A stretch of 64,000 bases of DNA, taken from Patescibacteria group bacterium. GTDB lineage: Bacteria; Patescibacteriota; Patescibacteriia; UBA2591; JAQUPP01. Both the position numbers and the translations under genes were made by a program. How positions within the stretch are numbered: position 1 is the first letter of the stretch; the number at the start of each line of letters is the position of its first letter. The stretch covers positions 267,717-331,716 of the forward strand of contig JAQUPP010000002.1 in the NCBI GenBank assembly GCA_028716665.1, given 5' to 3'. Positions 15,810 through 60,722 of the stretch are shown piece by piece. The notes beneath the pieces are model-generated. The model was given only the letters and a program-made list of their open reading frames with translations. It did not search any database and had not been told where the DNA came from.

Positions 15810-17603
15810 CTACTTCCAAACCATCTTTGTTTTAATATACCAATTTTCAATATTGATAAAACGATCTGATGGTCGGTGAATATAATTGATATCTATCCCT
15901 TTTATTTTTTTATCAACCAGGTAGCTGTAAGTGGTATTGTATAAGAAAACGGCCGGAATATTTTCAGCGATAATTTCTTGAAAGTCGCCCCAATATTTTT
16001 TACCTAAATTATTTCCTTTTGTTTTTTCCGCTTTTTCCAATAATTCATCAGCCTTTCTATTATTAAAACCGCTTAAATTCAAACCCGGAGGCGCGATTTG
16101 CGAAGAATGCCAAAGAAAATAAGGATCGGAATCGGAATTAGCCAAAACGCCATAAAGAAAACTTTGAAAATTACGCGCTTTGATAACTTCAGCAATTTGG
16201 TCCGGTGAAATGGTAATTGATTTTATTTTAATGCCGATATCTTGCCAGGCGGTTTGAATTAATTTAGCAGTTGTTTCCAAATCAGGCTGACTGACCGTAG
16301 TGAGAGTTATTTCCAATTCTTGTCCGTTTTTTTCAAAAATTCCCCGCTGATTTTTTTGCCAACCGGCTTGAGTTAAAGTTTTTTCCGCCAAAGACGGATT
16401 AAAACTGTATTTTGTAATATTCGGATTGTAAGCGGAAGAAAAAGGGAGGATAGCGCTGTCTATAATTTGCCCTTCTTCGTTTAAAACATTTTTAAAAATT
16501 TGATTTTTGGGTGTTAAATAAGCCAATGCTTCTCGAACAGATTTATCTTTTAAAGGAGAATTTTGATCTTTAAGATTAAAAAAGATAACAGTATAATATG
16601 GCAAGTTAAGGGGGTAATGTTTGATATTTTTAAGACCGGACACTTCGTCTCTTATTTTTTTAGGAGCATATCCCAGACCGATAATTTCTTGATTTTTTAA
16701 AGCTTTGGCTGCTTGATTGAAATCGGAATAAATTTTAAAAGTTATTTCTTGTAGATTTGCCACGTGTCCGTAAAATTTTTCATTGCGTTCCAAAGTATAT
16801 ACTTTAATAACATTAGATCTGTCTTGGGTTAAAGATTTAAATTGAAACGGACCACTTCCTATTGGTTTGAGATTAAATTCTGATTGAGAAAAAATTTCCG
16901 GTGTAATATTTTGCCAAATGTGTTTTGGTAAAATTCCCAAGGCAAGGGCGGACATAAAAGCGTCTGAAGGATTTTTTAATTTAAATTGAACGCAATTTTC
17001 ATCAAGCTGTTGAGCTTCTGATTCTTTAATCAAGGATTTAAATTGACTTTTAGAAACATCACTTTGAGCCAAATTAAAAGTGAATAATATGTCTTCAGGG
17101 GTTAATTTTTCTCCGTCATGCCAAAATATATTTTTTTTAAGACAAACTGTGTATTGTTTTTTATCTTGGCTGACCGAAACATTTTCAGCCAAATCAGGTT
17201 TTAATTCCAAGTTTTTATTATATTCTAAAAGTCCGGAAAAAATCAAACGGGATAAATCCAAATCCATGTCATCGGAAGCGAGAAGAGGATTAATAAATTT
17301 TGGCTCACTGACAGATCCTTCAATATAATATCCGCCGCTGATAGGTTTTGTTTGTAAATTAAAAAACCAAAAACGCCCGACAAGAAAAATAAAAGAAAAA
17401 AGAGTCAGGCATGTCAGAACAATAACAACTCTTTTCTCTTGAATAGTCAGAAAACGCCCGACATATTTTATTTGTTTTAAAGTCGGATGTTTTTTATTGA
17501 ATATTTGTTTGAAAATTCGGTGCTCAAATTCCGGAATAGCAACAAACCGATTTTTCAATCTTTGTACAATTTTTTTGATCATGGAGAGTTTTTCTATTGC
17601 CAA
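15810..17603 (-). CDS. ABC transporter substrate-binding protein, family 5 (peptide/nickel type), membrane-anchored
   Basis: N-terminal TM helix, size and FWHDGEKLTPEDILFTF-type SBP_bac_5 region. Confidence 0.55.
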   Translation of the reverse strand: MAIEKLSMIKKIVQRLKNRFVAIPEFEHRIFKQIFNKKHPTLKQIKYVGRFLTIQEKRVVIVLTCLTLFSFIFLVGRFWFFNLQTKPISGGYYIEGSVSEPKFINPLLASDDMDLDLSRLIFSGLLEYNKNLELKPDLAENVSVSQDKKQYTVCLKKNIFWHDGEKLTPEDILFTFNLAQSDVSKSQFKSLIKESEAQQLDENCVQFKLKNPSDAFMSALALGILPKHIWQNITPEIFSQSEFNLKPIGSGPFQFKSLTQDRSNVIKVYTLERNEKFYGHVANLQEITFKIYSDFNQAAKALKNQEIIGLGYAPKKIRDEVSGLKNIKHYPLNLPYYTVIFFNLKDQNSPLKDKSVREALAYLTPKNQIFKNVLNEEGQIIDSAILPFSSAYNPNITKYSFNPSLAEKTLTQAGWQKNQRGIFEKNGQELEITLTTVSQPDLETTAKLIQTAWQDIGIKIKSITISPDQIAEVIKARNFQSFLYGVLANSDSDPYFLWHSSQIAPPGLNLSGFNNRKADELLEKAEKTKGNNLGKKYWGDFQEIIAENIPAVFLYNTTYSYLVDKKIKGIDINYIHRPSDRFINIENWYIKTKMVWK

Positions 17604-18774: not shown

Positions 18775-18925
18775 AGGGAAGAGGGGCGGCCATTAGGTTG
18801 GCCGCACGAAAAGACTCCGCCAGCTGGCGGACCACTCGGACTCCGTGACGCTTTTCTTTGCGGCGCAATCTGATGGCCTAAGGGGGTAAAAAAAGGAATA
18901 TTGGGAATAATTTTGAAAAATCAAT
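18775..18925. ncRNA. GC-rich structured element (candidate small RNA), class unknown
   Basis: about 60% GC island in AT-rich DNA; nested helices TTAGG/CCTAA, GCCGC/GCGGC, GAAAAG/CTTTTC; perfect 14-nt palindrome CCGCCAGCTGGCGG; followed by plus-strand terminator. Confidence 0.3.
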
Positions 18926-18964
18926 AGCCCTGGCGACGATGCGCCAGGGCTATATTTTGTTTTC
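18926..18964. terminator. intrinsic terminator (copy 1 of a duplicated terminator)
   Basis: AGCCCTGGCG-ACGAT-GCGCCAGGGCT then TATATTTTGTTTT. Confidence 0.7.
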
Positions 18965-18967
18965 GAT

Positions 18968-19366
18968 TTAAATAATAACTGTCACCAACCAAAATCCTAA
19001 CCAGATTAGAATAATTTCGGGGATTACGGAAATAAACAGGGCGCTCTTTTTTATACCCAATTCATTGACAATGTAATCGACTTCAATAATGAATCGACGG
19101 GCAAGAAAGGCAACACCAATAATAAGAATAATAAGAACATCCAGAGAGGTTGCAAAAAAAGTTAAAAAGATAAAAACACTAAAAACAACAGCAGGTAAGA
19201 TGATAGGAATAGCAGTAGTACCAGTAAAGCAAAGTAGAATACAAGGAATAGCAAGAGTTAAACCACCCGCAGACATAACATCTCCACTTCTTAGATTTAA
19301 TGTTATAGCAAATATACTAATCACAACAATAAGACTGATAATCTCAGTCCAAATTAGTTTTTTCAT
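18968..19366 (-). CDS. multi-TM membrane protein, paralog A (MKKLIW ... LIWLGFWLVTVII)
   Basis: shares N- and C-terminal 10-15 aa and 3' flanking DNA with 19507..19926. Confidence 0.5.
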   Translation of the reverse strand: MKKLIWTEIISLIVVISIFAITLNLRSGDVMSAGGLTLAIPCILLCFTGTTAIPIILPAVVFSVFIFLTFFATSLDVLIILIIGVAFLARRFIIEVDYIVNELGIKKSALFISVIPEIILIWLGFWLVTVII

Positions 19367-19464
19367 TTTTTCTCCTTTTGTTGAATTGTTAAATAACTAA
19401 TTTAACGGTTATTATATATAAATATAATAGCAAATTTTTTGGTTTTTGTCAAGTTAAAATCAAT

Positions 19465-19504
19465 AGCCCTGGCGACGATGCGCCAGGGCTATATTTTGTT
19501 TTCG
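19465..19504. terminator. intrinsic terminator (copy 2, identical hairpin)
   Basis: identical AGCCCTGGCGACGATGCGCCAGGGCT hairpin plus T-run. Confidence 0.7.
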
Positions 19505-19506
19505 AT

Positions 19507-19926
19507 TTAAATAATAACTGTCACCAACCAAAATCCTACCCAGATTAAAAATATTTCTAATACAGCCGATATTAAAACATTTTTCTTCTTAAATCCCAGA
19601 CGTAAGACGGCCCTGAAAGAGATTAGGGCAAAAATACCGACAATAAAGAAAAGAATTGAGCGAACGATGGCGGAAGAGAAAGAAGCAAAGATGAAAAGGG
19701 CGGCGAAAGCAGAAACTAGGAAAGCCGCAGAGGATTCATAGGCAAAAAAGTCTTCTTGAATAGCGGCAAAGAATAGGGTAATAAAGCCAGACGTAAAGGC
19801 GGCGATACAGACAGAATCAGCAAGGGTAGCAAACGGAAATTTATATTTTTGAAAGTAAAACCCAATTCCAAAAATTACAATTGTAACGATAATAGCAAAT
19901 AATTCGGCCCAAATTAGTTTTTTCAT
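19507..19926 (-). CDS. multi-TM membrane protein, paralog B
   Basis: same termini as 18968..19366, divergent core. Confidence 0.5.
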   Translation of the reverse strand: MKKLIWAELFAIIVTIVIFGIGFYFQKYKFPFATLADSVCIAAFTSGFITLFFAAIQEDFFAYESSAAFLVSAFAALFIFASFSSAIVRSILFFIVGIFALISFRAVLRLGFKKKNVLISAVLEIFLIWVGFWLVTVII

Positions 19927-34639: not shown

Positions 34640-34667
34640 TTATTCATATTATATTTATTTTTTAAAA

Positions 34668-34707
34668 AACATTCTCATATTCTCAAGAATATGAGAATGT
34701 TTTTTAT
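34668..34707 (+). terminator. intrinsic terminator
   Basis: 34-bp perfect palindrome AACATTCTCATATTCTCAAGAATATGAGAATGTT plus T-run. Confidence 0.65.
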
Positions 34708-34865
34708 ACACGAAGTTGAATTATAATTATATTATCGCCAAAAGGTGCGGGGTTGACCCCGTCAGAAGTTTGACGCAAGTTTTTATATTTTAAAATATTC
34801 AGAGCCGCAAAGGCGGCTTCGCCTAAAGCCTTTATATATCTATGGTTTATTGATGAACTTCTAAC

Positions 34866-41430: not shown

Positions 41431-42021
41431 ATGAGTAAAATAAAAGTTTTAATTCAAGGTTACGCCAAAGAAAAAAACGGACAAGAATTCGCTTCGTCAA
41501 CAACCACGCTGATTCAAGAGAAAGGATTAAACATAATCGTTGACCCGGGAATGAACCGAAAATTATTATTAACGTCTTTGAAAAAACAAGGTTTGACTGT
41601 TTTGGATATAAATTATGTGATTTTAACGCATGATCACTCAGACCATTGTCTTTTGGCCGGAATTTTTGAAAAAGCCAAAATTTTGGACGCGGATGATATT
41701 TATTCATGGGACGGAAAAATCACCGGTCATAACGGTAAAGTCCCCGGAACTGAAATTAAAATTATAAAAACGCCCGGCCACGCCATGTTTCATTGTTCAG
41801 TTTTAGTCCAGACAAAGGAACTCGGAAAAACGGCCATTGTCGGCGATGTTTTCTGGTGGGCAGACGAAGAAAAACAAAAAACAGACCAACAAAGCCTGTT
41901 AAAACACAAAGACCCTTACGTAAAAAATGAAAAATTGCTCCTGGCAAGCAGAAAAAAGATTCTGAAAACCGCGGATTATATCATCCCCGGCCATGGAAAA
42001 ATGTTCGAAACAGGGGATTAA
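41431..42021 (+). CDS. MBL-fold metallo-hydrolase
   Basis: LTHDHSDH metal-binding motif. Confidence 0.7.
   Translation: MSKIKVLIQGYAKEKNGQEFASSTTTLIQEKGLNIIVDPGMNRKLLLTSLKKQGLTVLDINYVILTHDHSDHCLLAGIFEKAKILDADDIYSWDGKITGHNGKVPGTEIKIIKTPGHAMFHCSVLVQTKELGKTAIVGDVFWWADEEKQKTDQQSLLKHKDPYVKNEKLLLASRKKILKTADYIIPGHGKMFETGD
41946..42021 (+). repeat. direct repeat copy 1 (3' end of MBL hydrolase gene)
   Basis: about 90% identical to 43610-43690. Confidence 0.8.
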
Positions 42022-42162
42022 AAATGGGGGATTGATTTAAAAAGCTTGCCCCGTAGCGAACTTGTTCTGCTTCTGGGGTTATCCACAATTCAAATTTGAC
42101 AAATTATAATATGTACGTTATTATGTACATAGAGATTTATAAAAAATAAACAAAAAAATATT

Positions 42163-42525
42163 ATGAATATGAAAACAACTTTGCCCATTTCTGAGGCAAG
42201 AAAACAAATTTTTTTAATCGCAGAAGAGGCCCAAAGGCCCGGCAATTATTATACTTTAACCGAAAAAGGAAGGCCAAAAGTGGTGATGATGTCTGCCGAA
42301 GAGTTTGAATCTTGGCAGGAAACTTTGGAAGTGATGCAAGAATTTCCCAATTTGAAGAAAGACATCGCGCGCGCCGAAGCGGAAATAAAAAAAGGTGATT
42401 ATATCACCTTAGAAGAAATGATGGCCAAAAGCGGTTATATTTTAGCGGATAAATCAAAACAAAAATATGGCATATCAAATAATCATCGCCAAGAGTGTGC
42501 AAAAAGAAATAGAAAAGTTAAATAA
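42163..42525 (+). CDS. Phd/YefM-family antitoxin
   Basis: TLPISEARKQIFLIAEEAQ...VVMMSAEEFESWQETLE pattern; 3' end overlaps the toxin gene by 59 nt. Confidence 0.6.
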   Translation: MNMKTTLPISEARKQIFLIAEEAQRPGNYYTLTEKGRPKVVMMSAEEFESWQETLEVMQEFPNLKKDIARAEAEIKKGDYITLEEMMAKSGYILADKSKQKYGISNNHRQECAKRNRKVK

Positions 42526-42718
42526 TGTTTTTCAGATAAAAATTCAACTTGCGTTAGCTCAATTGGCAATCAATCCTTTCATTGGGAAAAAATTAGAAGG
42601 CGAATATAAAGATTCGTGGTCATATCGCGTTTGGCCGTATCGCATTTTGTATAAAATTCGCAAGCGCGAATTGGAAGTCTGGATAGTCAAAGTCGGACAT
42701 CGACAAGGAGTTTATTAA
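42467..42718 (+). CDS. RelE/ParE-family toxin
   Basis: 83 aa, YRILYKI ... VKVGHRQGVY C-terminus. Confidence 0.6.
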   Translation: MAYQIIIAKSVQKEIEKLNNVFQIKIQLALAQLAINPFIGKKLEGEYKDSWSYRVWPYRILYKIRKRELEVWIVKVGHRQGVY

Positions 42719-42736
42719 TAAAATTAATATAAAAAT

Positions 42737-43552
42737 ATGACAGATGATATAATTATTAATTCCCTTAATAAAGATTTTGAGAGTATTAAAAAAATTACTA
42801 AAAATGGTATTGAGTATTGGCAAGCTCGCGAATTAATGCCTCTTTTAGATTATCCAAATTGGCAAAAAGCAGAAGAAGTGATAGCTAGGGCTGCTAGGGC
42901 CTGTATTAATAGCGGCCAAGCTGTGGATAACCATTTTCACCAAATGGTTAAAATGGTGGAGATTGGCTCAAGTACAATGCGAGAAATAAGAGACTGGAAA
43001 TTAGATCGATATGCTTGTTATTTGGTTGCGCAAAACGGCGATCCTAATAAGCAAGAGATTGCTTTGGCTCAGACTTATTTTGCCATTCAAACAAGAAAAC
43101 AAGAAATATTTGAACAACTTTCTGCTTCCGATAAACGACTTTTTATTCGTGGCGAAGTAACGGCGGAAAATAAAAAGCTTTTCAGCACTGCTAAAAGAGC
43201 CGGTGTAACAAAATTCGGTTCATTTAATGATGCTGGCTATAAAGGATTGTATGGAATGCCTCTTGCGGATATTGAAAATAGAAAAGGAATAAGGAAAGGA
43301 GAACTTTTGGATCGTGCAGGAACAACTGAGCTGGCAGCAAATTTATTTCGAATAACTCAGACTGATGAAAAAATCAGAAAAGATGATATCAGGGGGGATG
43401 ACCTTGCGTCAAGAACGCATTTTATGGTCGGTGGTAAAGTCCGACAGACAATCAAGGATATAGGCGGAACACTTCCGGAAAATCTTCCGCCGGAAAAACA
43501 TATTAAGGAATTAAAAAGTGAGAAAAGAAAAAGTTTAAAAAAAAGAAACTAA
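42737..43552 (+). CDS. DNA-damage-inducible protein D (DinD)-like protein
   Basis: WQARELMPLLDY, DRYACYLVAQNGDP, ALAQTYFAIQTR pattern; C-terminus resembles that of ORF 49384. Confidence 0.45.
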   Translation: MTDDIIINSLNKDFESIKKITKNGIEYWQARELMPLLDYPNWQKAEEVIARAARACINSGQAVDNHFHQMVKMVEIGSSTMREIRDWKLDRYACYLVAQNGDPNKQEIALAQTYFAIQTRKQEIFEQLSASDKRLFIRGEVTAENKKLFSTAKRAGVTKFGSFNDAGYKGLYGMPLADIENRKGIRKGELLDRAGTTELAANLFRITQTDEKIRKDDIRGDDLASRTHFMVGGKVRQTIKDIGGTLPENLPPEKHIKELKSEKRKSLKKRN

Positions 43553-43609
43553 CATATACTTACAAAAAATATCTCGATATTTTTATTGGAAATGATAAAT
43601 AATAATATA

Positions 43610-43690
43610 AACGAAGCAGAAAAAAGATTTTAAAAATCGCGGATTATATCATCCCCGGCCACGGAAAAATGTTCAAAACAGGGGGAATAG
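43610..43690 (+). repeat. direct repeat copy 2 (degenerate duplicate of MBL gene 3' end)
   Basis: AAGCAGAAAAAAGATT ... GCGGATTATATCATCCCCGGCCA(T/C)GGAAAAATGTTC(G/A)AAACAGGGG. Confidence 0.8.
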
Positions 43691-43724
43691 TATTAAAAAT
43701 AAAAAATGATAAAATAAGATAATT

Positions 43725-45611
43725 ATGCGTTTTATTGGTTGTAAAGAAAATTTACTTGGTTTTATAGAAACCTTTGTCAAAAAAAAAGACATAAGAGGTA
43801 ATACCTTTTGTGATCTTTTTGCTGGAACAGGAAGTGTCGCTAAACATTTCAAAAAGCTTGGCTATAAAATTATTTCATCCGACCTTTTATATTTTTCTTA
43901 TGTTTTGCAAAAAGTTTATATTGAACAAAATCAATATCCTAAATTCGCTAAATTATTAAAATATTTAAAAATAAATCCCGTAGAGGAAACTCTTTTTACT
44001 AGTGACAGTCAAAACGCAAAAGAAGTAATCAAATGTCTTAATAATTTAGAAGGAACTGAGGGTTTTATTTATAAAAATTACTCACCTGAAGGCACACGGG
44101 GTCAAACAAATCTTCGTAAATATTTTACTGGCAATAATGCCAAACAAATTGACACGATAAGAGAAAAAATTGAGGAATGGAAAAAATCAAATTTCCTTAA
44201 TGAGCAAGAGTATTTTTTCTTACTTGGCGCACTTATTGAAGCAGTGCCATTTGTCGCAAATATCAGTGGGACTTATTCTGCTTTTCTTAAAAAATGGGAC
44301 AAGCGAGCATTTAAAAAACTAACACTTGAAGTGCCAGAAATTATTAAGAGCAATGAAACACATAAAGTGTTTAATATTAATGGTTTAAATGTTTTTGATC
44401 AGATAAAAGGAATTGATATTTTATATCTTGATCCGCCCTACAATGAGAGACAATACGCACCGAACTATCATATTTTAGAAACTATCGCAAAATGGGATAA
44501 ACCAGAAATTAAAGGTATTACTGGAATGAGAGCTTATGAAAATCAAAAATCTGAATTTTGTAATTCAAAATCTGGTATTAAAGCTCTTGATGAAATTATT
44601 AAAAAAAGCGACTTTAAACATTTAATTTTGAGTTATAATGATGACGGTATTATGCCAGAAAATGAAATATTAAAACTATTTAATAATGCTGGAAAAATTG
44701 AGGTAACAGAACAGGATTATCAAAGGTATAAAAGCAATAATAATGGCGATCAAAAAAATGGAGTAAGGGAAAAACTTTATTATCTTAAAAGAGTAAACCA
44801 TAATAATAAACTTAATGATTTAAGCGGCTCAGAGTGGATTTACTTTTTAAATTCGGTTGATGTAACTCACTATTCAACAAAAGGAATAGACGGCTTTGCC
44901 CATCATTTACGTGGAAAACATCCCTCGCCTAAACCACCTCAATTGATGAAAAAATTTATTGATTTTTTTACAAAAGAAAATCAAATCGTCCTCGATCCAT
45001 TTATGGGCGTTGGCGGAACATTAATTGCTTGCTCATTATCTAATCGAAAAGGAATTGGTATAGATTTATCAAAAAAATATATTGATTTATATAAAAAGGT
45101 TTGTAAAGAACTTAACGTTGTTGAGCAAACAACGATTGTTGGTAATTCCACAGGAATAGATAAATTATTAAAAAAAGGTACGACTATTGATTTTATTCTA
45201 ACTGATCCGCCATACGGTGAAATGTTAAGTAAAAAACGAACAGGACAAAGAAAAAAGAAAACAGGTATAGCCGTAGCCACGCCATTTACTAATCACGAAA
45301 CTGATTTGGGAAATATGGAACGAGAAAATTTTCTTGAATCATTAAAAGAGATAATTGCAAAATCAGCGGAATATCTAAAACCAAAAGGATATATTGCTGT
45401 TTTTGTAAAAGATTTACAACCTAAAAATGGCGAGCATAATATGCTTCATGCTTTTATAACAGATAAATTATTAGAAATTCCAGATATATCTTTTCGGGGT
45501 TATAAAATTTGGTATGACGCAACGCAGAAACTTTATCCTTTTGGCTATCCGCACGCTTTCGTTGCCAACCAATTTCATCAATTTATTATGATATTTCGTA
45601 AAGAAAAGTAG
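43725..45611 (+). CDS. DNA methyltransferase with two amino-MTase modules
   Basis: motif I FAGTGSV then DPPY (YLDPPYNE); second module KPPQL...VLDPFMGVGGT then TDPPYGE. Confidence 0.7.
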   Translation: MRFIGCKENLLGFIETFVKKKDIRGNTFCDLFAGTGSVAKHFKKLGYKIISSDLLYFSYVLQKVYIEQNQYPKFAKLLKYLKINPVEETLFTSDSQNAKEVIKCLNNLEGTEGFIYKNYSPEGTRGQTNLRKYFTGNNAKQIDTIREKIEEWKKSNFLNEQEYFFLLGALIEAVPFVANISGTYSAFLKKWDKRAFKKLTLEVPEIIKSNETHKVFNINGLNVFDQIKGIDILYLDPPYNERQYAPNYHILETIAKWDKPEIKGITGMRAYENQKSEFCNSKSGIKALDEIIKKSDFKHLILSYNDDGIMPENEILKLFNNAGKIEVTEQDYQRYKSNNNGDQKNGVREKLYYLKRVNHNNKLNDLSGSEWIYFLNSVDVTHYSTKGIDGFAHHLRGKHPSPKPPQLMKKFIDFFTKENQIVLDPFMGVGGTLIACSLSNRKGIGIDLSKKYIDLYKKVCKELNVVEQTTIVGNSTGIDKLLKKGTTIDFILTDPPYGEMLSKKRTGQRKKKTGIAVATPFTNHETDLGNMERENFLESLKEIIAKSAEYLKPKGYIAVFVKDLQPKNGEHNMLHAFITDKLLEIPDISFRGYKIWYDATQKLYPFGYPHAFVANQFHQFIMIFRKEK

Positions 45612-45612
45612 T

Positions 45613-47004
45613 ATGAAAAATAAAAATTTGTGGATTTTAACAGAAGAAAGACCAAAGCGAGAAGTTATCGCTAATATTTTAATGATGTTTGCAAAAAATA
45701 ATGAATTTGTCTGCTTTGTTGACACTATCCGCATTTTACCAATTTTAGAGAATGGTAAATTTTCATTTTTATATGAAGTGGTTGGTTTTCGTTGCAATAA
45801 AATTGAGAGAGTTTTTATAAAATCTGTTAGCGGTTTTGGTAGTTTTGTTGATTTTTTAATTTTTTTTCAAGAAAAACAGCCGATACAAACAGATTTACCA
45901 ATATATGCGATAGAAGAAACAAAAACTGATGATAAAGAAAGCAGAAACACAGGCGTATATCAGCGTGCTTCAAAATTTGTATTTATCGAAAAATACTATC
46001 CTAAAATAAAGAAAGTAATGCTTTATAATTTACAGATAGAACAAAAAGAGATACCAACAGCTACTTATATTTTCGGCACACGATTATTATTAACTCTTGG
46101 AGTTGAAATACTCGGTAAAAAACTAGATAGTAAAATTTTTCAGCCATTTCATTCACTTGATGAAATTATTGCTCTTAAAAAAGCAATGAGAAAAGCCCAT
46201 AAAGGCAATGTCCCGATTTTAATTAAAAAAATTGGCAATAAAATTACAGTTTCTGGTAGATTATATAAATCAGATGGGCTTGCTCATGATCCAAATATCG
46301 GGGCATTAAGTTTGATTTGCGCCGTTATTAGGGAATTAGGTTGGGATGGTGAAATTATTATTACTAAACACGGCTTAAAACAAAAACATATTCAAACTGA
46401 TAATAAATTTATAAAAATTGCTAACAAGTTGAATATAAAAATTCATGGACTTTTAATCCCTGTCAGTAAACATAGAGATAATTATTGGAAATATGAAACA
46501 GAGGGCGAAAAACTTGGCACAATTTTTATTCATTTAGTAGTTGAGAATTTTACAGAAGGATATGCAATTTTTGAAAATCATGCTGGATGTGAAAAAGGTT
46601 ATTTTATAACGAGCGATGGCAAACATATTCCACTTGAAAAATACTCAGATAGAAAAGCATACAAAGCCGGAAATAAAAATAAAATAATTAGCATCCCTGA
46701 TTTAATTTTGATTGATTTTGGAAGAAGTGAGATTGTCAATATTGAGGGTAAAAAATATCAATTTCGCCAAGACGGAATTAAAGAATTAAAAGGTTTTGGT
46801 GATATAGAAAAAACTTATATCAAAAAATATTATCCGAAATTTAAAATTACTCGTACTGTCGTTTTATATGGCGGAACTAAAACAAAAATTATTGAAATTG
46901 AAGTAGGTTTTTTACTCAATGAAAACGGCGATCTTATACTAGGAATGAAAGCACCAAAATTATTTAAAGAAGCAATTAAAAACCTTTTAGATTTTTGGTT
47001 GTAA
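45613..47004 (+). CDS. putative restriction endonuclease partner of the methyltransferase
   Basis: 1-nt spacing after MTase gene; PD-(D/E)xK-like segments (AIEETK; IPDLILIDFGRSEIVNIEGKK). Confidence 0.4.
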   Translation: MKNKNLWILTEERPKREVIANILMMFAKNNEFVCFVDTIRILPILENGKFSFLYEVVGFRCNKIERVFIKSVSGFGSFVDFLIFFQEKQPIQTDLPIYAIEETKTDDKESRNTGVYQRASKFVFIEKYYPKIKKVMLYNLQIEQKEIPTATYIFGTRLLLTLGVEILGKKLDSKIFQPFHSLDEIIALKKAMRKAHKGNVPILIKKIGNKITVSGRLYKSDGLAHDPNIGALSLICAVIRELGWDGEIIITKHGLKQKHIQTDNKFIKIANKLNIKIHGLLIPVSKHRDNYWKYETEGEKLGTIFIHLVVENFTEGYAIFENHAGCEKGYFITSDGKHIPLEKYSDRKAYKAGNKNKIISIPDLILIDFGRSEIVNIEGKKYQFRQDGIKELKGFGDIEKTYIKKYYPKFKITRTVVLYGGTKTKIIEIEVGFLLNENGDLILGMKAPKLFKEAIKNLLDFWL

Positions 47005-47041
47005 TAAAAAGATTAAAATTATATAATTAAATCTCAAAATA

Positions 47042-47455
47042 ATGGAGAAGAAAATAACAGAAGATTTTGTTAAACATGCAATAATTAAGTGGCTATCATC
47101 AAATGGTTGGGGATATTTTCAATTTGGAAATTTACATGATCATGGTGTTGATCTTAAGGCTAAAAATTTTAAATACTCTCGATATTTTTTTATTGAAACA
47201 AAAGGGCAAGGAAAAATAAGACAGGCAGATGAGGTCGCTTTTATCTATTCACTCGGGCAGATTATTACAAGAATGAAATCTGGCGGATCAACACGAAATT
47301 ATTATGCATTAGGATTACCTGATGTAAGTGCAAAAATTGCTATTCGGCGTATTCCGTGGCAAGTAGCTAAAAAACTTTTACTTTATGTATTTTCTGTAGA
47401 TAAATCTGGAAAAGTAAAACAATACTCTTGGCAAAATCTTAAAAAAATTCAATAG
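47042..47455 (+). CDS. small PD-(D/E)xK-fold nuclease-like protein (Hjc/Mrr-like core)
   Basis: 137 aa with HGVDLKAK...FFIETKGQ (D ... ExK) arrangement. Confidence 0.4.
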   Translation: MEKKITEDFVKHAIIKWLSSNGWGYFQFGNLHDHGVDLKAKNFKYSRYFFIETKGQGKIRQADEVAFIYSLGQIITRMKSGGSTRNYYALGLPDVSAKIAIRRIPWQVAKKLLLYVFSVDKSGKVKQYSWQNLKKIQ

Positions 47456-47529
47456 GCAGTGCACTAATTTTACTGACAAAAAATTAGGCGAAAAAAAATA
47501 ATATATTATAAAATAATTTTAAAAATTTT

Positions 47530-47718
47530 ATGAGTAAAATTCAAACTAATTCAGGACAAATTAGAAAAAAAAGAGAGGATACTTTAATTAAAAATATTGA
47601 AAAACAATATGGTGTTAATTTTGGCGTGCGAGGCGACGAAAAACTTGGAACATATCTTAGAGACAAAGGACTTCCTTCTCTTTCTAAGGCTCTAGTCAAA
47701 GTGACAAAAAAGAGATAA
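47530..47718 (+). CDS. small basic hypothetical protein (first gene of five-gene operon)
   Basis: CTGACA ... TAATAT promoter-like sequence at 47475-47515; 62 aa. Confidence 0.35.
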   Translation: MSKIQTNSGQIRKKREDTLIKNIEKQYGVNFGVRGDEKLGTYLRDKGLPSLSKALVKVTKKR

Positions 47719-47722
47719 CCAT

Positions 47723-48238
47723 ATGAATATTGATACTTTTTATAAAAATGTTAAATGGAATCTTGAACAAATCGTGGTTCAGGTTGGACATGCAGAAGGA
47801 GTAAAGGGAAGAGCTAGAAGCGGATATTATAAGTCGGCAATTATTTTAGCCGCTTCAATAATAGAAGCACTTGCATATAAAATATTAGAGCAAAATTATT
47901 CTCTAGAAATGCCGTTAGAAGATTGGAAGTGTGTACGTTCAAATTTTTTGCCCGAACAATATAAAAGCGATAAAGGAGAAAGGTTAAGTATTTGTGAGAG
48001 AAAAAGATTTAAGTTTGAGCTAAATAAACAAACTGATTTCAAAAAGGTAAACGAGGTTTGTCATTTCCTTAATGTTTTCTCAACAAAATCATTCAAAAAA
48101 ATAGAAAAGGTAAGAAAATTAAGGAATAGAATACATATTCAAGGATTAGATGATTTGGATAGAAGTTATACAAAAAAAGAATTGGAATTTGTTTCATCTG
48201 TCATGAATGAATTACTAAACAAGATTAATCATGGATAA
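47723..48238 (+). CDS. hypothetical protein, possible HEPN-like domain
   Basis: C-terminal RKLRNRIHIQG fits Rx4-6H; 4-nt gap to the upstream gene. Confidence 0.35.
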   Translation: MNIDTFYKNVKWNLEQIVVQVGHAEGVKGRARSGYYKSAIILAASIIEALAYKILEQNYSLEMPLEDWKCVRSNFLPEQYKSDKGERLSICERKRFKFELNKQTDFKKVNEVCHFLNVFSTKSFKKIEKVRKLRNRIHIQGLDDLDRSYTKKELEFVSSVMNELLNKINHG

Positions 48239-48249
48239 TTTATTAAACT

Positions 48250-48615
48250 ATGATTAACAATATCGAAAAATTAACTGAGTCCCAACTTGTTGAATATACG
48301 GGCGAAAAAGCTAAACTTTCAGGAATGTCGAGCGGACTTGATGCCCAACAAGCTCAGGCTGAACTTACCAAACGTCTAATTGACAGTATTCGAAATTTTG
48401 ATGATGCCTCTTCTAGATATTCCAAAATTTTATTAATACTCACAATGATTTTAATGGAAATTGGTATTTCTCAAATACTTATAACTTTATTTCAATTTGA
48501 ACGGTTATGGGAAAAAATGTTAATATACTTTATTATTCTTTTGGGTTTTATTATATTATTTATATATGCTTATAAATCAATTTTTAATGACGACAAAAAA
48601 TTAAATAATAAATAA
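48250..48615 (+). CDS. small protein with soluble N-terminus and two C-terminal TM helices
   Basis: hydrophobic segments ILLILTMILMEIGISQILITLF and LIYFIILLGFIILFIYAY. Confidence 0.4.
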   Translation: MINNIEKLTESQLVEYTGEKAKLSGMSSGLDAQQAQAELTKRLIDSIRNFDDASSRYSKILLILTMILMEIGISQILITLFQFERLWEKMLIYFIILLGFIILFIYAYKSIFNDDKKLNNK

Positions 48616-48616
48616 T

Positions 48617-49372
48617 ATGTCTGAATATTATAACCCAAACAGAACAAGAAATCTTTACAGTCCTATTTCAAAGGAAGTTTTTCGTTTAAGTCGGTCAAAG
48701 ATTGATTTATTCATAAAATGTCCGAGGTGTTTTTATTTGGATCGCCGGCTTGGCGTCGGCCAACCGCCCGGATTTCCGTTTTCCTTGAATTCCGCCGTGG
48801 ATAAACTTTTGAAAAAAGAATTTGATATTCATCGGGCTAAAGGAGTGGCGCATCCGTTAATGACCGAATATGGCGTGGACGCGGTGCCGTTGGTTCATAA
48901 AAAAATGGAAGAATGGCGTGATTCTTTGCGCGCCGGCATAACTTATCAAATACCCGGCACGAATATAATGATTACCGGCGGCGTGGATGATGTTTGGGTA
49001 AATCCGAAAGGCGAATTTCTGATTGTTGATTACAAAGCCACTTCAAAAAGTGAGGAAGTTAATTTGGATGCCGAATGGCAGATTGGGTATAAACGGCAGA
49101 TGGAAATATATCAATGGTTGTTCAGGCAAAATGGTTTTAAAGTGTCTTCAACCGGTTATTTTGTTTATTGCAACGGCGACGCGGACAAAAAAGCGTTTGA
49201 CGGCAAATTGGAATTTGACATCAAAATTATTCCGTATAAAGGCGATGATTCTTGGGTTGAAAAAACCGTTAAAGAGGCGATAGAGTGCCTTAATTCCGAC
49301 ATTCTCCCTAAACCCGGACCCGACTGCGACTTTTGTAAATACCGCCAAGCGGTCAAAAAATTTGAGAACTAA
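48617..49372 (+). CDS. Cas4/RecB-like PD-(D/E)xK nuclease with four-Cys cluster
   Basis: GGVDDVW ... LIVDYKAT (D/ExK), QMEIYQW (QxxxY), Cys at CPRC (N-terminal) and CDFC (C-terminal). Confidence 0.55.
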   Translation: MSEYYNPNRTRNLYSPISKEVFRLSRSKIDLFIKCPRCFYLDRRLGVGQPPGFPFSLNSAVDKLLKKEFDIHRAKGVAHPLMTEYGVDAVPLVHKKMEEWRDSLRAGITYQIPGTNIMITGGVDDVWVNPKGEFLIVDYKATSKSEEVNLDAEWQIGYKRQMEIYQWLFRQNGFKVSSTGYFVYCNGDADKKAFDGKLEFDIKIIPYKGDDSWVEKTVKEAIECLNSDILPKPGPDCDFCKYRQAVKKFEN

Positions 49373-50807: not shown

Positions 50808-51299
50808 ATGAATAAAAAAAATGTTATCAAGTTTTTAATTTATTTCGGTTTTTGTGAATGCGCCGGCGCCATTGGCAGTATTTTCACCGTTTCGGCCATC
50901 AAAAATTGGTATGTATTTTTAGAAAAACCGTCTTTCAGTCCGCCAAATTGGTTATTCGGTCCGGCCTGGACCACACTTTATCTATTAATGGCAATTTCCA
51001 TTTTTCTCATTTCGTCCTCTTACGCTAAAGCTACAGAAGGACAGAGCAAAAAAATAAAAATGGTTTCTCGTCTTTTCTGGATTCATTTATTTTTTAACGC
51101 CATTTGGTCATTTTTATTTTTCGGATTGGAGAGCCCATTACTCGGACTTTTTGACATTATAATTTTATGGGTGATGATCGGAATTTTGACTTTTCAATTC
51201 TTCAAAATCAGAAAACTGGCCGGAATTTTATTTATTCCTTATTGGCTTTGGGTTTCTTTTGCCACAATTTTAAACTTTTTTGTTTGGAAATTAAATTAA
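50808..51299 (+). CDS. TspO/MBR family tryptophan-rich membrane protein
   Basis: NWLFGPAWTTLYLLMAIS, five TM helices, Trp-rich. Confidence 0.7.
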   Translation: MNKKNVIKFLIYFGFCECAGAIGSIFTVSAIKNWYVFLEKPSFSPPNWLFGPAWTTLYLLMAISIFLISSSYAKATEGQSKKIKMVSRLFWIHLFFNAIWSFLFFGLESPLLGLFDIIILWVMIGILTFQFFKIRKLAGILFIPYWLWVSFATILNFFVWKLN

Positions 51300-51484
51300 C
51301 CCTTCGACAAACTCAGGATAAATCCTTCGACAAACTCAGGATAAATCCTTCGACAAACTCAGGATAAACCCTTCGACAAACTCAGGATAAACCCTTCGAT
51401 ACTTCAACAGATTCAGTACAAGTAAACTCAGGATAAATCCTTCGATACTTCAACAGATTCAGTACAAGTAAACTCAGGATAAAT
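51299..51484 (+). repeat. tandem direct repeats: 23-bp unit x4 followed by a 46-bp unit x2
   Basis: CCTTCGACAAACTCAGGATAAAT x4, then CCTTCGATACTTCAACAGATTCAGTACAAGTAAACTCAGGATAAAT x2. Confidence 0.85.
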
Positions 51485-51498
51485 CATTTAATAAATTT

Positions 51499-52182
51499 AT
51501 GAAAAATAAAAGACTCATTTTGATTTTTATTTTAATATTTATGGCAATCGGGTGCGGCATTTATTTTTTGATTTTTAAATCAGTTAATAAAGAACCCCCG
51601 AAGCCGCTTACGGCGTCAAAGCCAACTGTTTTTTGGATTGACAACAGGACATTATCAGTACTTTTTAAAATTGAAAATCCCAACAGAAATTACGGATCGG
51701 ATAATTATTCATACACGATCAATCTTTATGACGACCATGAAAATTTGATAAAATCAATTCAGAAATCACTTTTTATTTACAGAGGAGAAACTCAAACTTT
51801 GGCTGAAACAAAAATTGATACGGGCGGAAATATGGTTGGCCGGGCGGAAGTGGTTATTGGCGACACAAATTGGATTCCGGCGATCAATTTTACAAAACCT
51901 ATTTTAAAAACGGAAGCTTTGGAAACGACCAAAGAAAAAAACAGTTCTTATAAAATCAACGTAAAATTATATAATCCGAATGATTTTGATATTTCCAAAC
52001 TTGTTGTCAGCGCGGTTTTGTTCAGCAAAGAAGGACGGGAAATGGCAGTGGTCAGAGCGGACTCGGATTCCATGAAGGCCAAAAGAAGCAAGGGGCTTAT
52101 ATCTTACATAAACATTGATTCTTCCATGGAACAATATCTTGACATGTCGGCTACAAAATTTTACATATACGCCAAAAAATAA
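51499..52182 (+). CDS. membrane-anchored/exported hypothetical protein
   Basis: N-terminal hydrophobic helix ending FMAIGCGIYF. Confidence 0.4.
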   Translation: MKNKRLILIFILIFMAIGCGIYFLIFKSVNKEPPKPLTASKPTVFWIDNRTLSVLFKIENPNRNYGSDNYSYTINLYDDHENLIKSIQKSLFIYRGETQTLAETKIDTGGNMVGRAEVVIGDTNWIPAINFTKPILKTEALETTKEKNSSYKINVKLYNPNDFDISKLVVSAVLFSKEGREMAVVRADSDSMKAKRSKGLISYINIDSSMEQYLDMSATKFYIYAKK

Positions 52183-52485: not shown

Positions 52486-52547
52486 TCCATTGACGTATTT
52501 TAATTTTTCGGCTATTATATAAAGAAGGTTCTTTAAAAGGAGGAAAA

Positions 52548-52898
52548 ATGAAAAAGAAAAAATATTCATCGTTTTATCGGGAATTTAAGGAAATGCATGC
52601 AATGCGAAAAAAGATTGATGCGAAATGTAAGCAAATAAATAAATTAATGGCAGAAAAAGGCAAGTTAGAGAAAGAAAAGGTTAAAAAACTTAAGAAATTT
52701 GTAGGAAAACGAGTTGAAATATGTTGGGACGACGATTCGCAATGGAAAGGTAAAATAGAGTGTACTTTAGTTAAAATTTTTGAAGATCGTAATTTTGGCT
52801 GGGGATGTAAAATAGAACAGAAATCCATAAAATATATTCGTGGTCCCGAAACAAAAATATTATTTGTGAACGAAATTACGAAGATAGAAAAAGTTTAA
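52548..52898 (+). CDS. hypothetical protein, paralog of 60325..60675
   Basis: shared KRVEICW..D..WKGKI.CTL core; TTGACG-N17-TATTAT promoter and AAGGAGG SD. Confidence 0.5.
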   Translation: MKKKKYSSFYREFKEMHAMRKKIDAKCKQINKLMAEKGKLEKEKVKKLKKFVGKRVEICWDDDSQWKGKIECTLVKIFEDRNFGWGCKIEQKSIKYIRGPETKILFVNEITKIEKV

Positions 52899-52948
52899 TT
52901 TAAAAAAGGTCCGCAATAATTCGCGGGCCTTTTCTTATTGATTTTTTT
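52890..52948 (+). terminator. intrinsic terminator (copy 1 of duplicated terminator)
   Basis: GGTCCGCAATAATTCGCGGGCC hairpin + TTTTCTTATTGATTTTTTT; identical to 60683-60722. Confidence 0.65.
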
Positions 52949-60037: not shown

Positions 60038-60328
60038 ATGAGCAAAAAAAATAATATCGATAAGTTCGTTAAAGAAGTCGGGAATACGATAAAAATACTG
60101 ATGACTCGGTGCGAAAAAGCAGGAATGAAGAAAAAGACTATTCAAAAATTTTTTGCCGGGGAAGAAGTTATAAACTGCCCTCATTGCAAGACCATGAATA
60201 TGGTTGAATCGCATTATGACAAAAAAGAAGAATGGTCAATGTATAAATGTTTGGCCTGCAAAAAAACACTTCTTAAAGATTGGAAAAAAATCTCGCCTAT
60301 TATTGTCAAGAAAGGAGGTGAAAAATGA
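60038..60328 (+). CDS. zinc-ribbon protein
   Basis: CPHC ... CLAC; overlaps next gene by 4 nt. Confidence 0.45.
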   Translation: MSKKNNIDKFVKEVGNTIKILMTRCEKAGMKKKTIQKFFAGEEVINCPHCKTMNMVESHYDKKEEWSMYKCLACKKTLLKDWKKISPIIVKKGGEK

Positions 60329-60675
60329 AAGCAGAAAAATGTTCATCGTTTTATCGGGAAAATCAAAAATTAATTGATTTACAGGATAAAATCAATGAGC
60401 AATCTAAAAAAGTGAATGAATTACAGGCGAAAAAAAGCGAGTTGCTGAAAAAAAAGGCTGAAAAATTCAGGGAATTCGCGGGAAAACGGGTTGAAATATG
60501 CTGGAATGAAGGTGACTGGAAAGGTAAAATCAGGTGTACTTTAAGTGAAGTCGTAGAACCTCATGAATTCAGCTTGATATGCAAGATGAATTCTAATAAA
60601 ACCGTACAGTTCCTACGCGGTCCTTACAGACAGATGTTCTTTATAGAAAATATTACAAGGATAAAGGAAGTTTAA
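60325..60675 (+). CDS. hypothetical protein, paralog of 52548..52898
   Basis: KRVEICWNEGDWKGKIRCTL core; identical downstream terminator. Confidence 0.5.
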   Translation: MKAEKCSSFYRENQKLIDLQDKINEQSKKVNELQAKKSELLKKKAEKFREFAGKRVEICWNEGDWKGKIRCTLSEVVEPHEFSLICKMNSNKTVQFLRGPYRQMFFIENITRIKEV

Positions 60676-60682
60676 TTTAAAG

Positions 60683-60722
60683 GGTCCGCAATAATTCGCG
60701 GGCCTTTTCTTATTGATTTTTT
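60683..60722 (+). terminator. intrinsic terminator (copy 2)
   Basis: identical to 52908-52948. Confidence 0.65.

Follow-up and report, generated by a model that had tools for sequence, protein, structure and literature searches.

How does the end of one gene come to lie twice in a bacterial genome, once in its place and once more behind three genes that are unrelated to it? This arrangement is found in a 64,000-nucleotide (nt) stretch of DNA from a Patescibacteria group bacterium (assembly GCA_028716665.1, contig JAQUPP010000002.1, positions 267,717 to 331,716), called the window below, in which the 3′ end of a gene for a metallo-beta-lactamase (MBL)-fold hydrolase recurs downstream of a Phd/YefM-ParE/RelE toxin-antitoxin (TA) pair and a DinD-like gene. 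Patescibacteria, or Candidate Phyla Radiation (CPR) bacteria, cannot be grown alone and their gene gain is little understood; the locus gives a concrete picture of it. An earlier note on the sequence had taken the two copies for a target-site or attachment (att)-type duplication left by a small mobile cassette. Our results indicate that the repeat is most likely a recombination scar at the left edge of a defense island and not the end of a self-mobile cassette.

Anatomy of the direct repeat

For comparison with the window, 166 loci carrying the MBL gene were fetched and several more were obtained by exact-protein look-up, giving about 1.9 Mb of loci. They are designated by L numbers (L004, L170, etc.), L004 being the same contig as L007 and L088. 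Within the window, the two copies of the gene end (copies 1 and 2, Table 1) align in direct orientation and without gaps over 71 nt (41946 to 42016 against 43614 to 43684), with 66 of 71 positions identical (93%). The match can be extended to the position of the stop codon (42021 and about 43689) with one inserted G and a few extra bases. The repeat reported in the earlier note (41946 to 42021 and 43610 to 43690, about 90% identity) is real, at about 76 nt and about 90% with this extension; only the start of its second copy needs correction, as copy 2 begins at 43614 and 43610 is 4 nt too early. A 24-nt core, CGCGGATTATATCATCCCCGGCCA, is identical in both copies (41970 to 41993 and 43638 to 43661) and has exactly two sites in the 64 kb with up to 3 mismatches tolerated, where none is expected in shuffled sequence. 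We can also set aside a generic repeated element, since all other matches in the 1.9 Mb of fetched loci fall on ends of MBL genes.

Copy 1 is translated as SRKKILKTADYIIPGHGKMFETGD and the stop codon of the MBL gene. Copy 2 is translated in frame as SRKKILKIADYIIPGHGKMFKTGG, followed by a read-through that is caused by an extra G (GGGGG in copy 2 versus GGGG in copy 1). Minus that G, copy 2 would end in TGE and a stop codon, comparable to the MBL gene of L008, which ends in IGE and a stop codon; both ends were determined by reading the sequence. The copies differ at five positions (41962, 41964, 41969, 41994, and 42007). Three of these differences are synonymous (CTG to TTA, CAT to CAC), and the other two replace Thr by Ile and Glu by Lys, the Ile and Lys of copy 2 being the family consensus. 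The synonymous changes and the consensus residues at the replacements argue that copy 2 derives from a functional gene end.

Homology to the MBL gene has a sharp onset at 43614, which is preceded by an AT-rich spacer without a match in any fetched locus. We infer that the illegitimate joint lies at 43613/43614, at the 3′ end of this spacer. An extension of copy 2 to 43522 proposed by tblastn was rejected, as it crosses a stop codon by sequence reading and probably reflects low-complexity, Lys/Glu-rich similarity.

In a self-comparison of the window, the repeat of the MBL end is one of only three long direct repeats, the remaining two being pairs of paralogs. One pair consists of small genes of 132 and 139 amino acids (aa) on the minus strand (18917 to 19018 and 19456 to 19557) and the other of two 116-aa genes on the plus strand (52536 to 52947 and 60311 to 60722). 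Both of these repeats include shared terminator hairpins.

Recurrence of the gene end in related loci

The close relatives by their MBL proteins are L004, L008, L087, L089, and L090, at 87 to 88% aa identity, with L005 at 78%. The MBL 3′ end of each locus was compared with the rest of that locus by blastn, tblastn, and motif scans. Orphan MBL 3′ ends were found in 4 of the 9 lineages whose MBL is at least 75% identical to that of the window; the approximately 115 more distant loci in which downstream sequence could be used had none. In the window, the remnant is 71 nt long (-75 to -5 relative to the stop codon), with Phd-RelE and DinD as cargo. L004 has a remnant of 100 nt (-98 to +1, 90% identical) with a Fic gene as cargo, and L005 and L006 have one of 49 nt (-41 to +7, 98% identical) with AbiEi/AbiEii, a structure that recurs in two unrelated samples and assemblies. 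The fourth, in L170, is divergent (ASRQKVLDMADWIIPGHGERYGVR and a stop codon) and has its left edge at about -80; it lies about 30 nt after the stop codon of an MBL gene with 76% aa identity, without cargo. Left edges are thus different in every lineage (-98, -75, about -80, and -41). These loci bear out the earlier suggestion that an event of the insertion type affected the MBL gene at its 3′ end, as the gene is intact and the same type of duplication is present around other cargo in relatives.

In both L004 and L005, the duplication of the MBL end is the sole internal repeat. No further decayed copies were detected deeper in the island by blastn, tblastn, or motif scans. The short contigs P0004 and P0006 have no remnant in the 67 to 343 nt of downstream sequence that they contain. 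A possible GTTA overlap between the Fic stop codon and the edge of copy 2 in L004 was noted by sequence reading only. After the L170 remnant, 1196 to 1590 is a noncoding, unannotated region of about 400 nt with a long hairpin (CCCCCACACCAAACCT … AGGTTTGGTGTGGGGG), which could be a small RNA or an element resembling a miniature inverted-repeat transposable element.

A hypervariable defense island

Pairwise nucleotide homology of the window with L004, L008, L087, L089, and L090 breaks off at the MBL stop codon and begins again at about 48597 (48249 in L090). The flanks are shared: an S51 peptidase gene, then RhuM/Fic or MazG, then MBL on the left in six close relatives, and the PD-(D/E)XK gene, a Bro-N gene, and a dCMP deaminase gene on the right where the contigs are long enough. 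Between these borders, seven related lineages, including the window, have seven different cargos. The window carries Phd-RelE, DinD, a restriction-modification (R-M) pair, and four small open reading frames (ORFs). L004 has Fic, then a methyltransferase, HinfI, Dcm, and a HATPase protein, and L005 has AbiEi/AbiEii. A 65-aa ORF, RadC, Phd-RelE, and a type I R-M system are found in L089, and MazG, a Schlafen-type helicase, RadC, and a methyltransferase in L087. L090 has an SDH-type protease and DpnI, and L008 a LexA-Eco57I-type methyltransferase and ThsB-TIR/8xMP. Given this gap in homology and its different content in each lineage, the segment 42022 to 48596 is a hypervariable defense island, with the MBL stop codon as its left border.

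Among the close relatives, identity is 92 to 94.5% for the MBL gene, 93 to 94.6% for the PD-(D/E)XK gene, and about 99% for the neighboring RhuM gene. The PD-(D/E)XK gene of the window is 92 to 93% identical to those of the close relatives and so as close to them as they are to one another, whereas the window backbone genes are only 81 to 90% identical. Such scrambled ancestry would be expected if islands were often exchanged by homologous crossovers in the border genes.

Cargo modules

All three genes that the earlier note had placed between the copies, Phd/YefM, ParE/RelE, and DinD-like, were confirmed with Pfam and NCBIfam (Table 1). The Phd and ParE/RelE ORFs are adjacent and overlapping and both score above their family cut-offs, which identifies them as a type II TA system. 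A promoter scan placed their promoter, TTGACA-17-TATTAT, at 42096 to 42124. The segment from the promoter to the end of RelE (42078 to 42723) is 90% identical to nt 1746 to 2402 of L089, where it lies after RadC and before the type I R-M system, without DinD and without an MBL remnant or repeats. DinD has thousands of CPR homologs that are 80 to 88% identical. At the nucleotide level it is 79 to 81% identical to L171 (6001 to 6816) and L175 (6001 to 6819), the homology being limited to the ORF plus or minus about 15 nt. The closest DinD homologs examined are lone ORF-sized inserts in housekeeping surroundings, with YebC and RuvC or an ABC transporter and a peptidase on the two sides and no flanking repeats.

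These distributions do not agree with a single small mobile cassette, as had been proposed, because Phd-RelE occurs without DinD in L089 and DinD occurs alone elsewhere. Nor did a search for the same cassette at other loci reveal one: the exact DinD and Phd proteins were found only on contigs of this genome, and Phd-RelE is the only part of the cassette that recurs elsewhere, in L089 and more weakly in L097.

The R-M pair has a comparable history of its own. From 43704 to 47031 it is 87% identical in nt (93% in aa) to nt 7980 to 11304 of L186, with the onset of homology at 43704; in L186, the pair lies at an unrelated Patescibacteria locus between DUF218 and DUF389 genes. G+C content falls to 0.27 to 0.31 at this module, within a low-G+C block from 43600 to 48600. 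Of the small genes that complete the island, the 121-aa one is common only to L090. As Phd-RelE, DinD, and the R-M pair each occur alone elsewhere, the island is a string of ORF-precise modules, each with a separate history.

The methyltransferase is 71 to 94% identical in other phyla as well (Firestonebacteria, Poribacteria, and Thermodesulfobacteriota). At the 5′ edge of the Phd-RelE module, GTTATCCACA-N8-TTGAC (42078 to 42100) places a perfect DnaA-box 9-mer just upstream of the -35 hexamer. The same arrangement is present in L089 (1746 to 1768) and L005 (2340 to 2362), and throughout the 1.9 Mb it is restricted to the 5′ edges of Phd-RelE and AbiE, two TA modules that are unrelated to each other. 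Within dinD, TTATCCACA appears a second time, on the minus strand (42922 to 42930).

Table 1 Features of the MBL locus and the adjoining island in the window
Feature	Position	Strand	Description
MBL-fold hydrolase gene	41431-42021	+	196 aa; Pfam Lactamase_B; left border of the variable island at its stop codon
Copy 1	41946-42016	+	Last 25 codons of the MBL gene, functional; substitutions private to this lineage at 41969, 41994, and 42007
Alpha tail	42022-42077	+	TAAAAATGGGGGATTGA...; 3′ tail of the MBL allele of the window
Phd/YefM-ParE/RelE module	42078-42723	+	Own promoter and operator-like palindrome
Phd/YefM antitoxin	42163-42525	+	PF02604, 50.7 bits (cut-off 29.8)
ParE/RelE toxin	42467-42718	+	PF05016, 45.7 bits (cut-off 23)
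DinD module	42721-43558	+	ORF 42737-43552; Bro-N; NCBIfam PRK11525, E 1e-100
Spacer	43559-43613	+	AT-rich; no match in any fetched locus
Copy 2	43614-43703	+	Displaced, nonfunctional 3′ end, apparently of another MBL allele, with its own beta tail
R-M module	43704-47031	+	Two genes; adjoins copy 2
Fused D12/N6_N4 DNA methyltransferase	43725-45611	+	Pfam
Partner of methyltransferase	45613-47004	+	463 aa; presumed restriction enzyme; no Pfam or NCBIfam match
Remaining ORFs of the variable island	47042-48615	+	137, 62, 171, and 121 aa; no confident family
PD-(D/E)XK (Cas4-like) gene	48617-49372	+	Conserved right border; homology with relatives resumes at about 48597

Search for a recombinase and for att or transposon signatures

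In agreement with the earlier note, which had found no integrase gene, a phmmer search with approximate queries for the XerD of E. coli and a gamma-delta-type resolvase detected neither tyrosine nor serine recombinases in the window (64 kb), L004, L005, L008, L087, L089, and L090. A regular-expression scan for recombinase motifs was also negative. As positive controls, the same phmmer search found tyrosine recombinases in five other loci, and those five have no duplication of the MBL end.

Transposon target-site duplications are short and exact, of about 2 to 15 bp, and flank terminal inverted repeats. The idea of a target-site duplication in this sense has to be given up, as the repeat is 71 nt long and imperfect (93%), the copies represent different alleles with different tails, and no terminal inverted repeats are present at 42022 or 43613. 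A fixed att site likewise fails on the left edges, which differ in every lineage. Two more specific candidates were rejected. The MBL-end motif has no match in 2.9 million viral contigs, which speaks against a phage or plasmid attP for the MBL end. An integron gene cassette was discarded because the window has no integrase and no attC-type structure: the regions 43553 to 43700 (both strands), 42010 to 42100, and 41940 to 42030 fold no better than shuffled sequence (z of -0.7 to +0.4). In and around the repeat, Rfam gave nothing relevant, its one subthreshold match being located elsewhere.

Integrase-driven elements such as e14 and phage 21 at icd, and islands at tRNA or tmRNA genes, replace the 3′ end of a gene; there, the integrase lies beside att, the extents are fixed, and the element moves as a unit. 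The MBL locus resembles the icd-type elements in that the 3′ end of the target gene is duplicated with synonymous-type differences and the gene is functional. An integrase-borne element was nevertheless rejected, because the direct repeat and the intact gene are present but an adjacent recombinase, a fixed att extent, and mobility as a unit are all absent.

A subtler version of this idea is that the MBL 3′ end (core around ATCCCCGGCCACGGAAAAATGTTC) serves as an att-type site for nonautonomous cassettes with an MBL-like attP segment, which a tyrosine or serine recombinase from another genomic location would integrate, as for cis-mobilizable elements or integrons. Four independent events have hit one gene end, all in direct orientation and with the gene always intact, and integrases that target gene ends are classically recognized by the replacement of a gene 3′ end. 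All remnants moreover contain the segment from -41 to -5; it encodes the invariant PGHG motif and is locally the most G+C-rich and best conserved part. Cargo of the TA, Fic, and AbiE kinds is also typical of integrative elements. We nevertheless regard an att-type site as unlikely. In the close relatives, the absence of a recombinase extends to 10 kb around the MBL gene, and in the five loci in which a tyrosine recombinase is nearby the gene end is not duplicated. The variable left edges leave no fixed attP extent, the L170 remnant lacks cargo, and the cargo of the window is composite, with its parts found separately. The results with viral contigs and for attC-like structures point the same way.

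Allelic difference between the copies

The sequences that follow the gene ends distinguish the two copies. The alpha tail, TAAAAATGGGGGAYTGA, follows copy 1 of the window, the L170 gene, both L005 copies, and copy 2 of L004. Copy 2 of the window has a beta tail, which resembles the tails of L087 and L008: nt 43614 to 43713 align with the L087 gene end and 21 nt of its tail at 89% over 100 nt. Copy 1 of L004 has a gamma tail, 62 nt of which are common to L089. The tails therefore differ between the copies in three of the four loci (alpha and beta in the window, gamma and alpha in L004, alpha and another in L170). Copy 2 of the window is 97% identical to the L090 gene end, compared with 93% to copy 1, and it has the nonprivate state at all three sites at which copy 1 has private substitutions (Table 1). 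The similarity to another lineage, the nonprivate states, and the separate tail argue that copy 2 is not a recent copy of its own gene end. From its sequence, copy 2 appears to be the 3′ end and tail of another MBL allele.

Two candidate interpretations of these differences were rejected. The alpha tail is not a general junction motif, as it occurs in the 1.9 Mb only after MBL ends, bar one unrelated match in L028. The private substitutions do not indicate a foreign 3′ end in copy 1 either: the MBL gene has 32 of them relative to five relatives, evenly spread along the gene, with 3 inside copy 1, and the 6 of 32 in the last 87 nt are no excess.

The allelic difference also bears on a local origin of the repeat, in which the MBL 3′ end or the whole gene would have been duplicated by slippage or unequal crossing-over, the copy would have decayed, and unrelated cargo would have landed in between. 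Tandem MBL paralogs do exist in the archaeal loci L043 and L060, and the L005 copies are 98% identical and share the same type of tail. However, the genes of L043 and L060 are full-length, distinct paralogs and not decaying copies, no longer remnants or pseudogene pieces are present upstream of any copy 2, tails and alleles differ in three of the four loci, and copy 2 of the window is closer to the gene of another lineage than to its own. A local duplication thus seems improbable to a high degree.

An assembly chimera of two strain variants joined at the shared MBL end is so improbable as to be negligible, even though the source is a metagenome-assembled genome (MAG) and one Logan contig (L169) begins inside copy 2, at 43649, because an independent Logan contig (L168, run SRR22315505) is 100% identical from DinD through copy 2 to the methyltransferase, the L005/L006 structure stems from two unrelated samples and assemblies, and the left joint of copy 2 is with non-MBL sequence, which a k-mer misjoin at a shared repeat would not give.

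A probable homology-anchored insertion

On balance, we consider it somewhat probable that a homology-anchored, recombinase-independent insertion displaced the gene end of another allele, be it by insertion with long target duplication, by homology-facilitated illegitimate recombination (HFIR), or by a single crossover. As in HFIR-type displacement, a conserved anchor gene has a displaced 3′ fragment downstream, and the copies come from what appear to be different alleles. In the usual event, an incoming island would replace the resident one through homologous crossovers in both border genes, leaving no scar. In a rarer, additive event, one end of the incoming DNA would recombine homologously and the other would be joined illegitimately; equivalently, a circular fragment with a short piece of the MBL end could integrate by a single crossover. 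Either route would yield an intact MBL gene, then the new DNA, then a short 3′ fragment of a second MBL allele in front of older cargo. The pathway behind the observed anatomy, recurrence, allelic difference, modular cargo, and absence of a recombinase would thus consist of RecA-type homologous recombination and an illegitimate joint, probably after DNA uptake.

The short and variable remnants (41 to 100 nt) would fit such an insertion because longer overlaps would recombine legitimately or be deleted. Scars would be confined to the gene end because nothing would be visible of joints that formed outside the gene.

The newcomer could be either Phd-RelE-DinD or the block from copy 2 through the R-M pair to PD-(D/E)XK. 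The beta tail of copy 2 directly abuts the R-M module, and this adjacency of copy 2 and its own tail to the module implies that the R-M pair was once directly behind an intact MBL gene. The ancestry of the flanks leans slightly to the second choice. A single import of the block is the more economical, as copy 2 and PD-(D/E)XK resemble those of relatives and the segment 43600 to 48600 is low in G+C; Phd-RelE-DinD would then be the resident and not the insert.

Several points weigh against a homology-anchored insertion. Neither a donor nor a true empty-site genome was found, so that the illegitimate joint and any microhomology lack a direct comparison; the empty site expected in the earlier note, an MBL gene followed by this methyltransferase, is present in none of the 166 MBL loci, and L008, L087, L089, and L090 have a single MBL end and an aligned left flank with other cargo next. 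All four scars lie in the last 100 nt of one gene, which could reflect a site-directed process, and a recombinase encoded beyond the 64 kb may act in trans. For copy 2, the allelic evidence comes from 71 nt only (2 versus 5 to 7 mismatches), and the support for competence and RecA is phylum-level literature.

A bolder possibility, to which we give little credence, is that the MBL 3′ end is a dedicated capture site at which CPR bacteria stack defense modules, through a recombinase in trans or a specialized homology-driven route. If this were true, the ORF-precise modules Phd-RelE, DinD, and R-M, which are 80 to 90% identical across distant CPR genomes, would be its substrates, and CPR bacteria, which are largely without classical mobile-element machinery, would have an integron-like system without an integron.

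Comparison with known systems

A homology-anchored insertion at the MBL gene would have close precedents. Insertion with long target duplication was reportedly described by Nobusato et al. in 2000. It is characterized by inserts of a few kb between repeats of 30 to more than 400 bp, which relatives have in single copy, and by the absence of mobility genes, occurs mostly in competent species, and sometimes overlaps a gene 3′ end (PMC2853133). The MBL locus shares with it repeats longer than 30 bp (71 nt here, 100 nt in L004, and 49 nt in L005), their variable length, the overlap with a gene 3′ end, R-M genes nearby, and an insert below 20 kb without mobility genes, in this case 1.6 kb with Phd, ParE/RelE, and DinD only. 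The described class, however, was defined for inserts that contain both R and M (Furuta, Abe & Kobayashi 2010, PMC2853133), whereas here the R-M pair lies just outside the downstream copy. Also unlike that class, sister lineages show repeated hits on the same gene end, a clean empty site was not found, and the copies appear to be different alleles and not a duplicated target.

HFIR-like events have been proposed to displace effector 3′ ends one after another in Vibrio type VI secretion system (T6SS) arrays and in Rhs loci (PMC5361080). As in these arrays and in contact-dependent inhibition (CDI) orphan arrays, the MBL locus has a conserved upstream anchor beside which modules are added, with older content pushed downstream, 3′ fragments kept, and no recombinase. 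There, however, the displaced unit is a variable toxin tip with its immunity gene, and orphan immunity genes are under selection, whereas the piece displaced here comes from a housekeeping-like hydrolase, of which it is the conserved end, and has no apparent function, and the cargo modules are unrelated to the anchor gene.

Single crossover of a circular molecule with a trimmed homologous end in Escherichia coli duplicated 109 to 950 bp of that end in 56 of 60 clones (PMC3240628). This Campbell-type insertion-duplication, obtained with a lacZ end, gives the same order of intact first copy, insert, and truncated second copy, with variable lengths. It was, however, a laboratory plasmid system, and no circular intermediate or plasmid is known for the MBL locus, where the repeats are also shorter (41 to 100 nt) and 2 to 10% diverged. 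With regard to DNA uptake, Patescibacteria are reported to possess comEC, pili, and genes for homologous recombination, as well as numerous genomic islands, some of them R-M islands (PMC12455944).

The scar is therefore of a known kind and reveals no new type of mobile element. It differs from the precedents in the cargo between the repeats, in the repeated use of one gene end, and in the allelic difference of the copies. Its interest lies in what it says about island growth. The conserved 3′ end of a core gene forms the fixed edge of an island whose content turns over completely between genomes that are 5 to 12% apart in their flanks, and the four independent scars at this gene end suggest that DNA is sometimes added to the island and not only swapped, with no recombinase gene nearby. 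The locus would thus be a clear natural example of additive island growth without a recombinase in an uncultivated phylum, and would add a new phylum, and cargo other than R-M, to the known range of insertion with long target duplication and HFIR-type displacement. In practice, a short orphan copy of the end of a border gene may serve as a sequence signature for dating or ordering island acquisitions in metagenomes.

Distribution of the MBL gene and other observations

The MBL protein has 1600 homologs, mostly about 70% identical, and is conserved in CPR bacteria and DPANN archaea. Between the two groups, identity is 65 to 73% (Aenigmatarchaeota, Woesearchaeota, and Nanoarchaeota MAGs; loci L009 to L086). 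Its downstream neighbors are almost never alike, as 239 neighboring proteins fall into 181 clusters, and a weak Pfam match to the anti-Pycsar protein Apyc1 is on record. Together, the cross-domain identity, the changing neighbors, and the weak Apyc1 match suggest that the gene is frequently transferred across domains.

A MazG-like gene (77% identical in nt) lies directly downstream of the MBL gene in L087 (10602 to 10936) and directly upstream of it in L005 (1263 to 1597), and the slot between the S51 peptidase and MBL genes holds a RhuM/Fic-DOC gene in the window, L008, L087, and L090. The upstream side of the MBL gene is therefore variable too.

The tandem MBL paralogs of the archaeal loci lie at 10001 to 11178 in L043 and 9414 to 10597 in L060. 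In the L043 pair, identity is only 56% along the final 39 residues of the query gene but reaches 96% in the last 50 nt; in the L060 pair, it is 76% in the last 91 nt. These similarities may reflect gene conversion at the conserved 3′ end. Being full-length and distinct, these tandem copies were rejected as intermediates of the arrangement in the window.

An intergenic palindrome whose arms measure about 36 nt (…AAAAAACATTCTCATATTCT / AGAATATGAGAATGTTTTTT…) is present in the window at 34648 to 34721, in L087 at 17060 to 17096, in L089 at 9445 to 9483 and 10304 to 10368, and at several positions of L090 and L008. In relatives the element is found repeatedly in intergenic regions, in L087 and L089 also exactly at the right edge of the island, and it looks like a dispersed bidirectional terminator or a repeat of the repetitive extragenic palindromic type. 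Between the TspO gene and the next ORF of the window (51286 to 51507), the 23-nt unit AAACTCAGGATAAATCCTTCGAC occurs in about five tandem repeats followed by a 46-nt pair, and nt 51292 to 51323 of this region also match the right border of the island in L089 (9485 to 9516).

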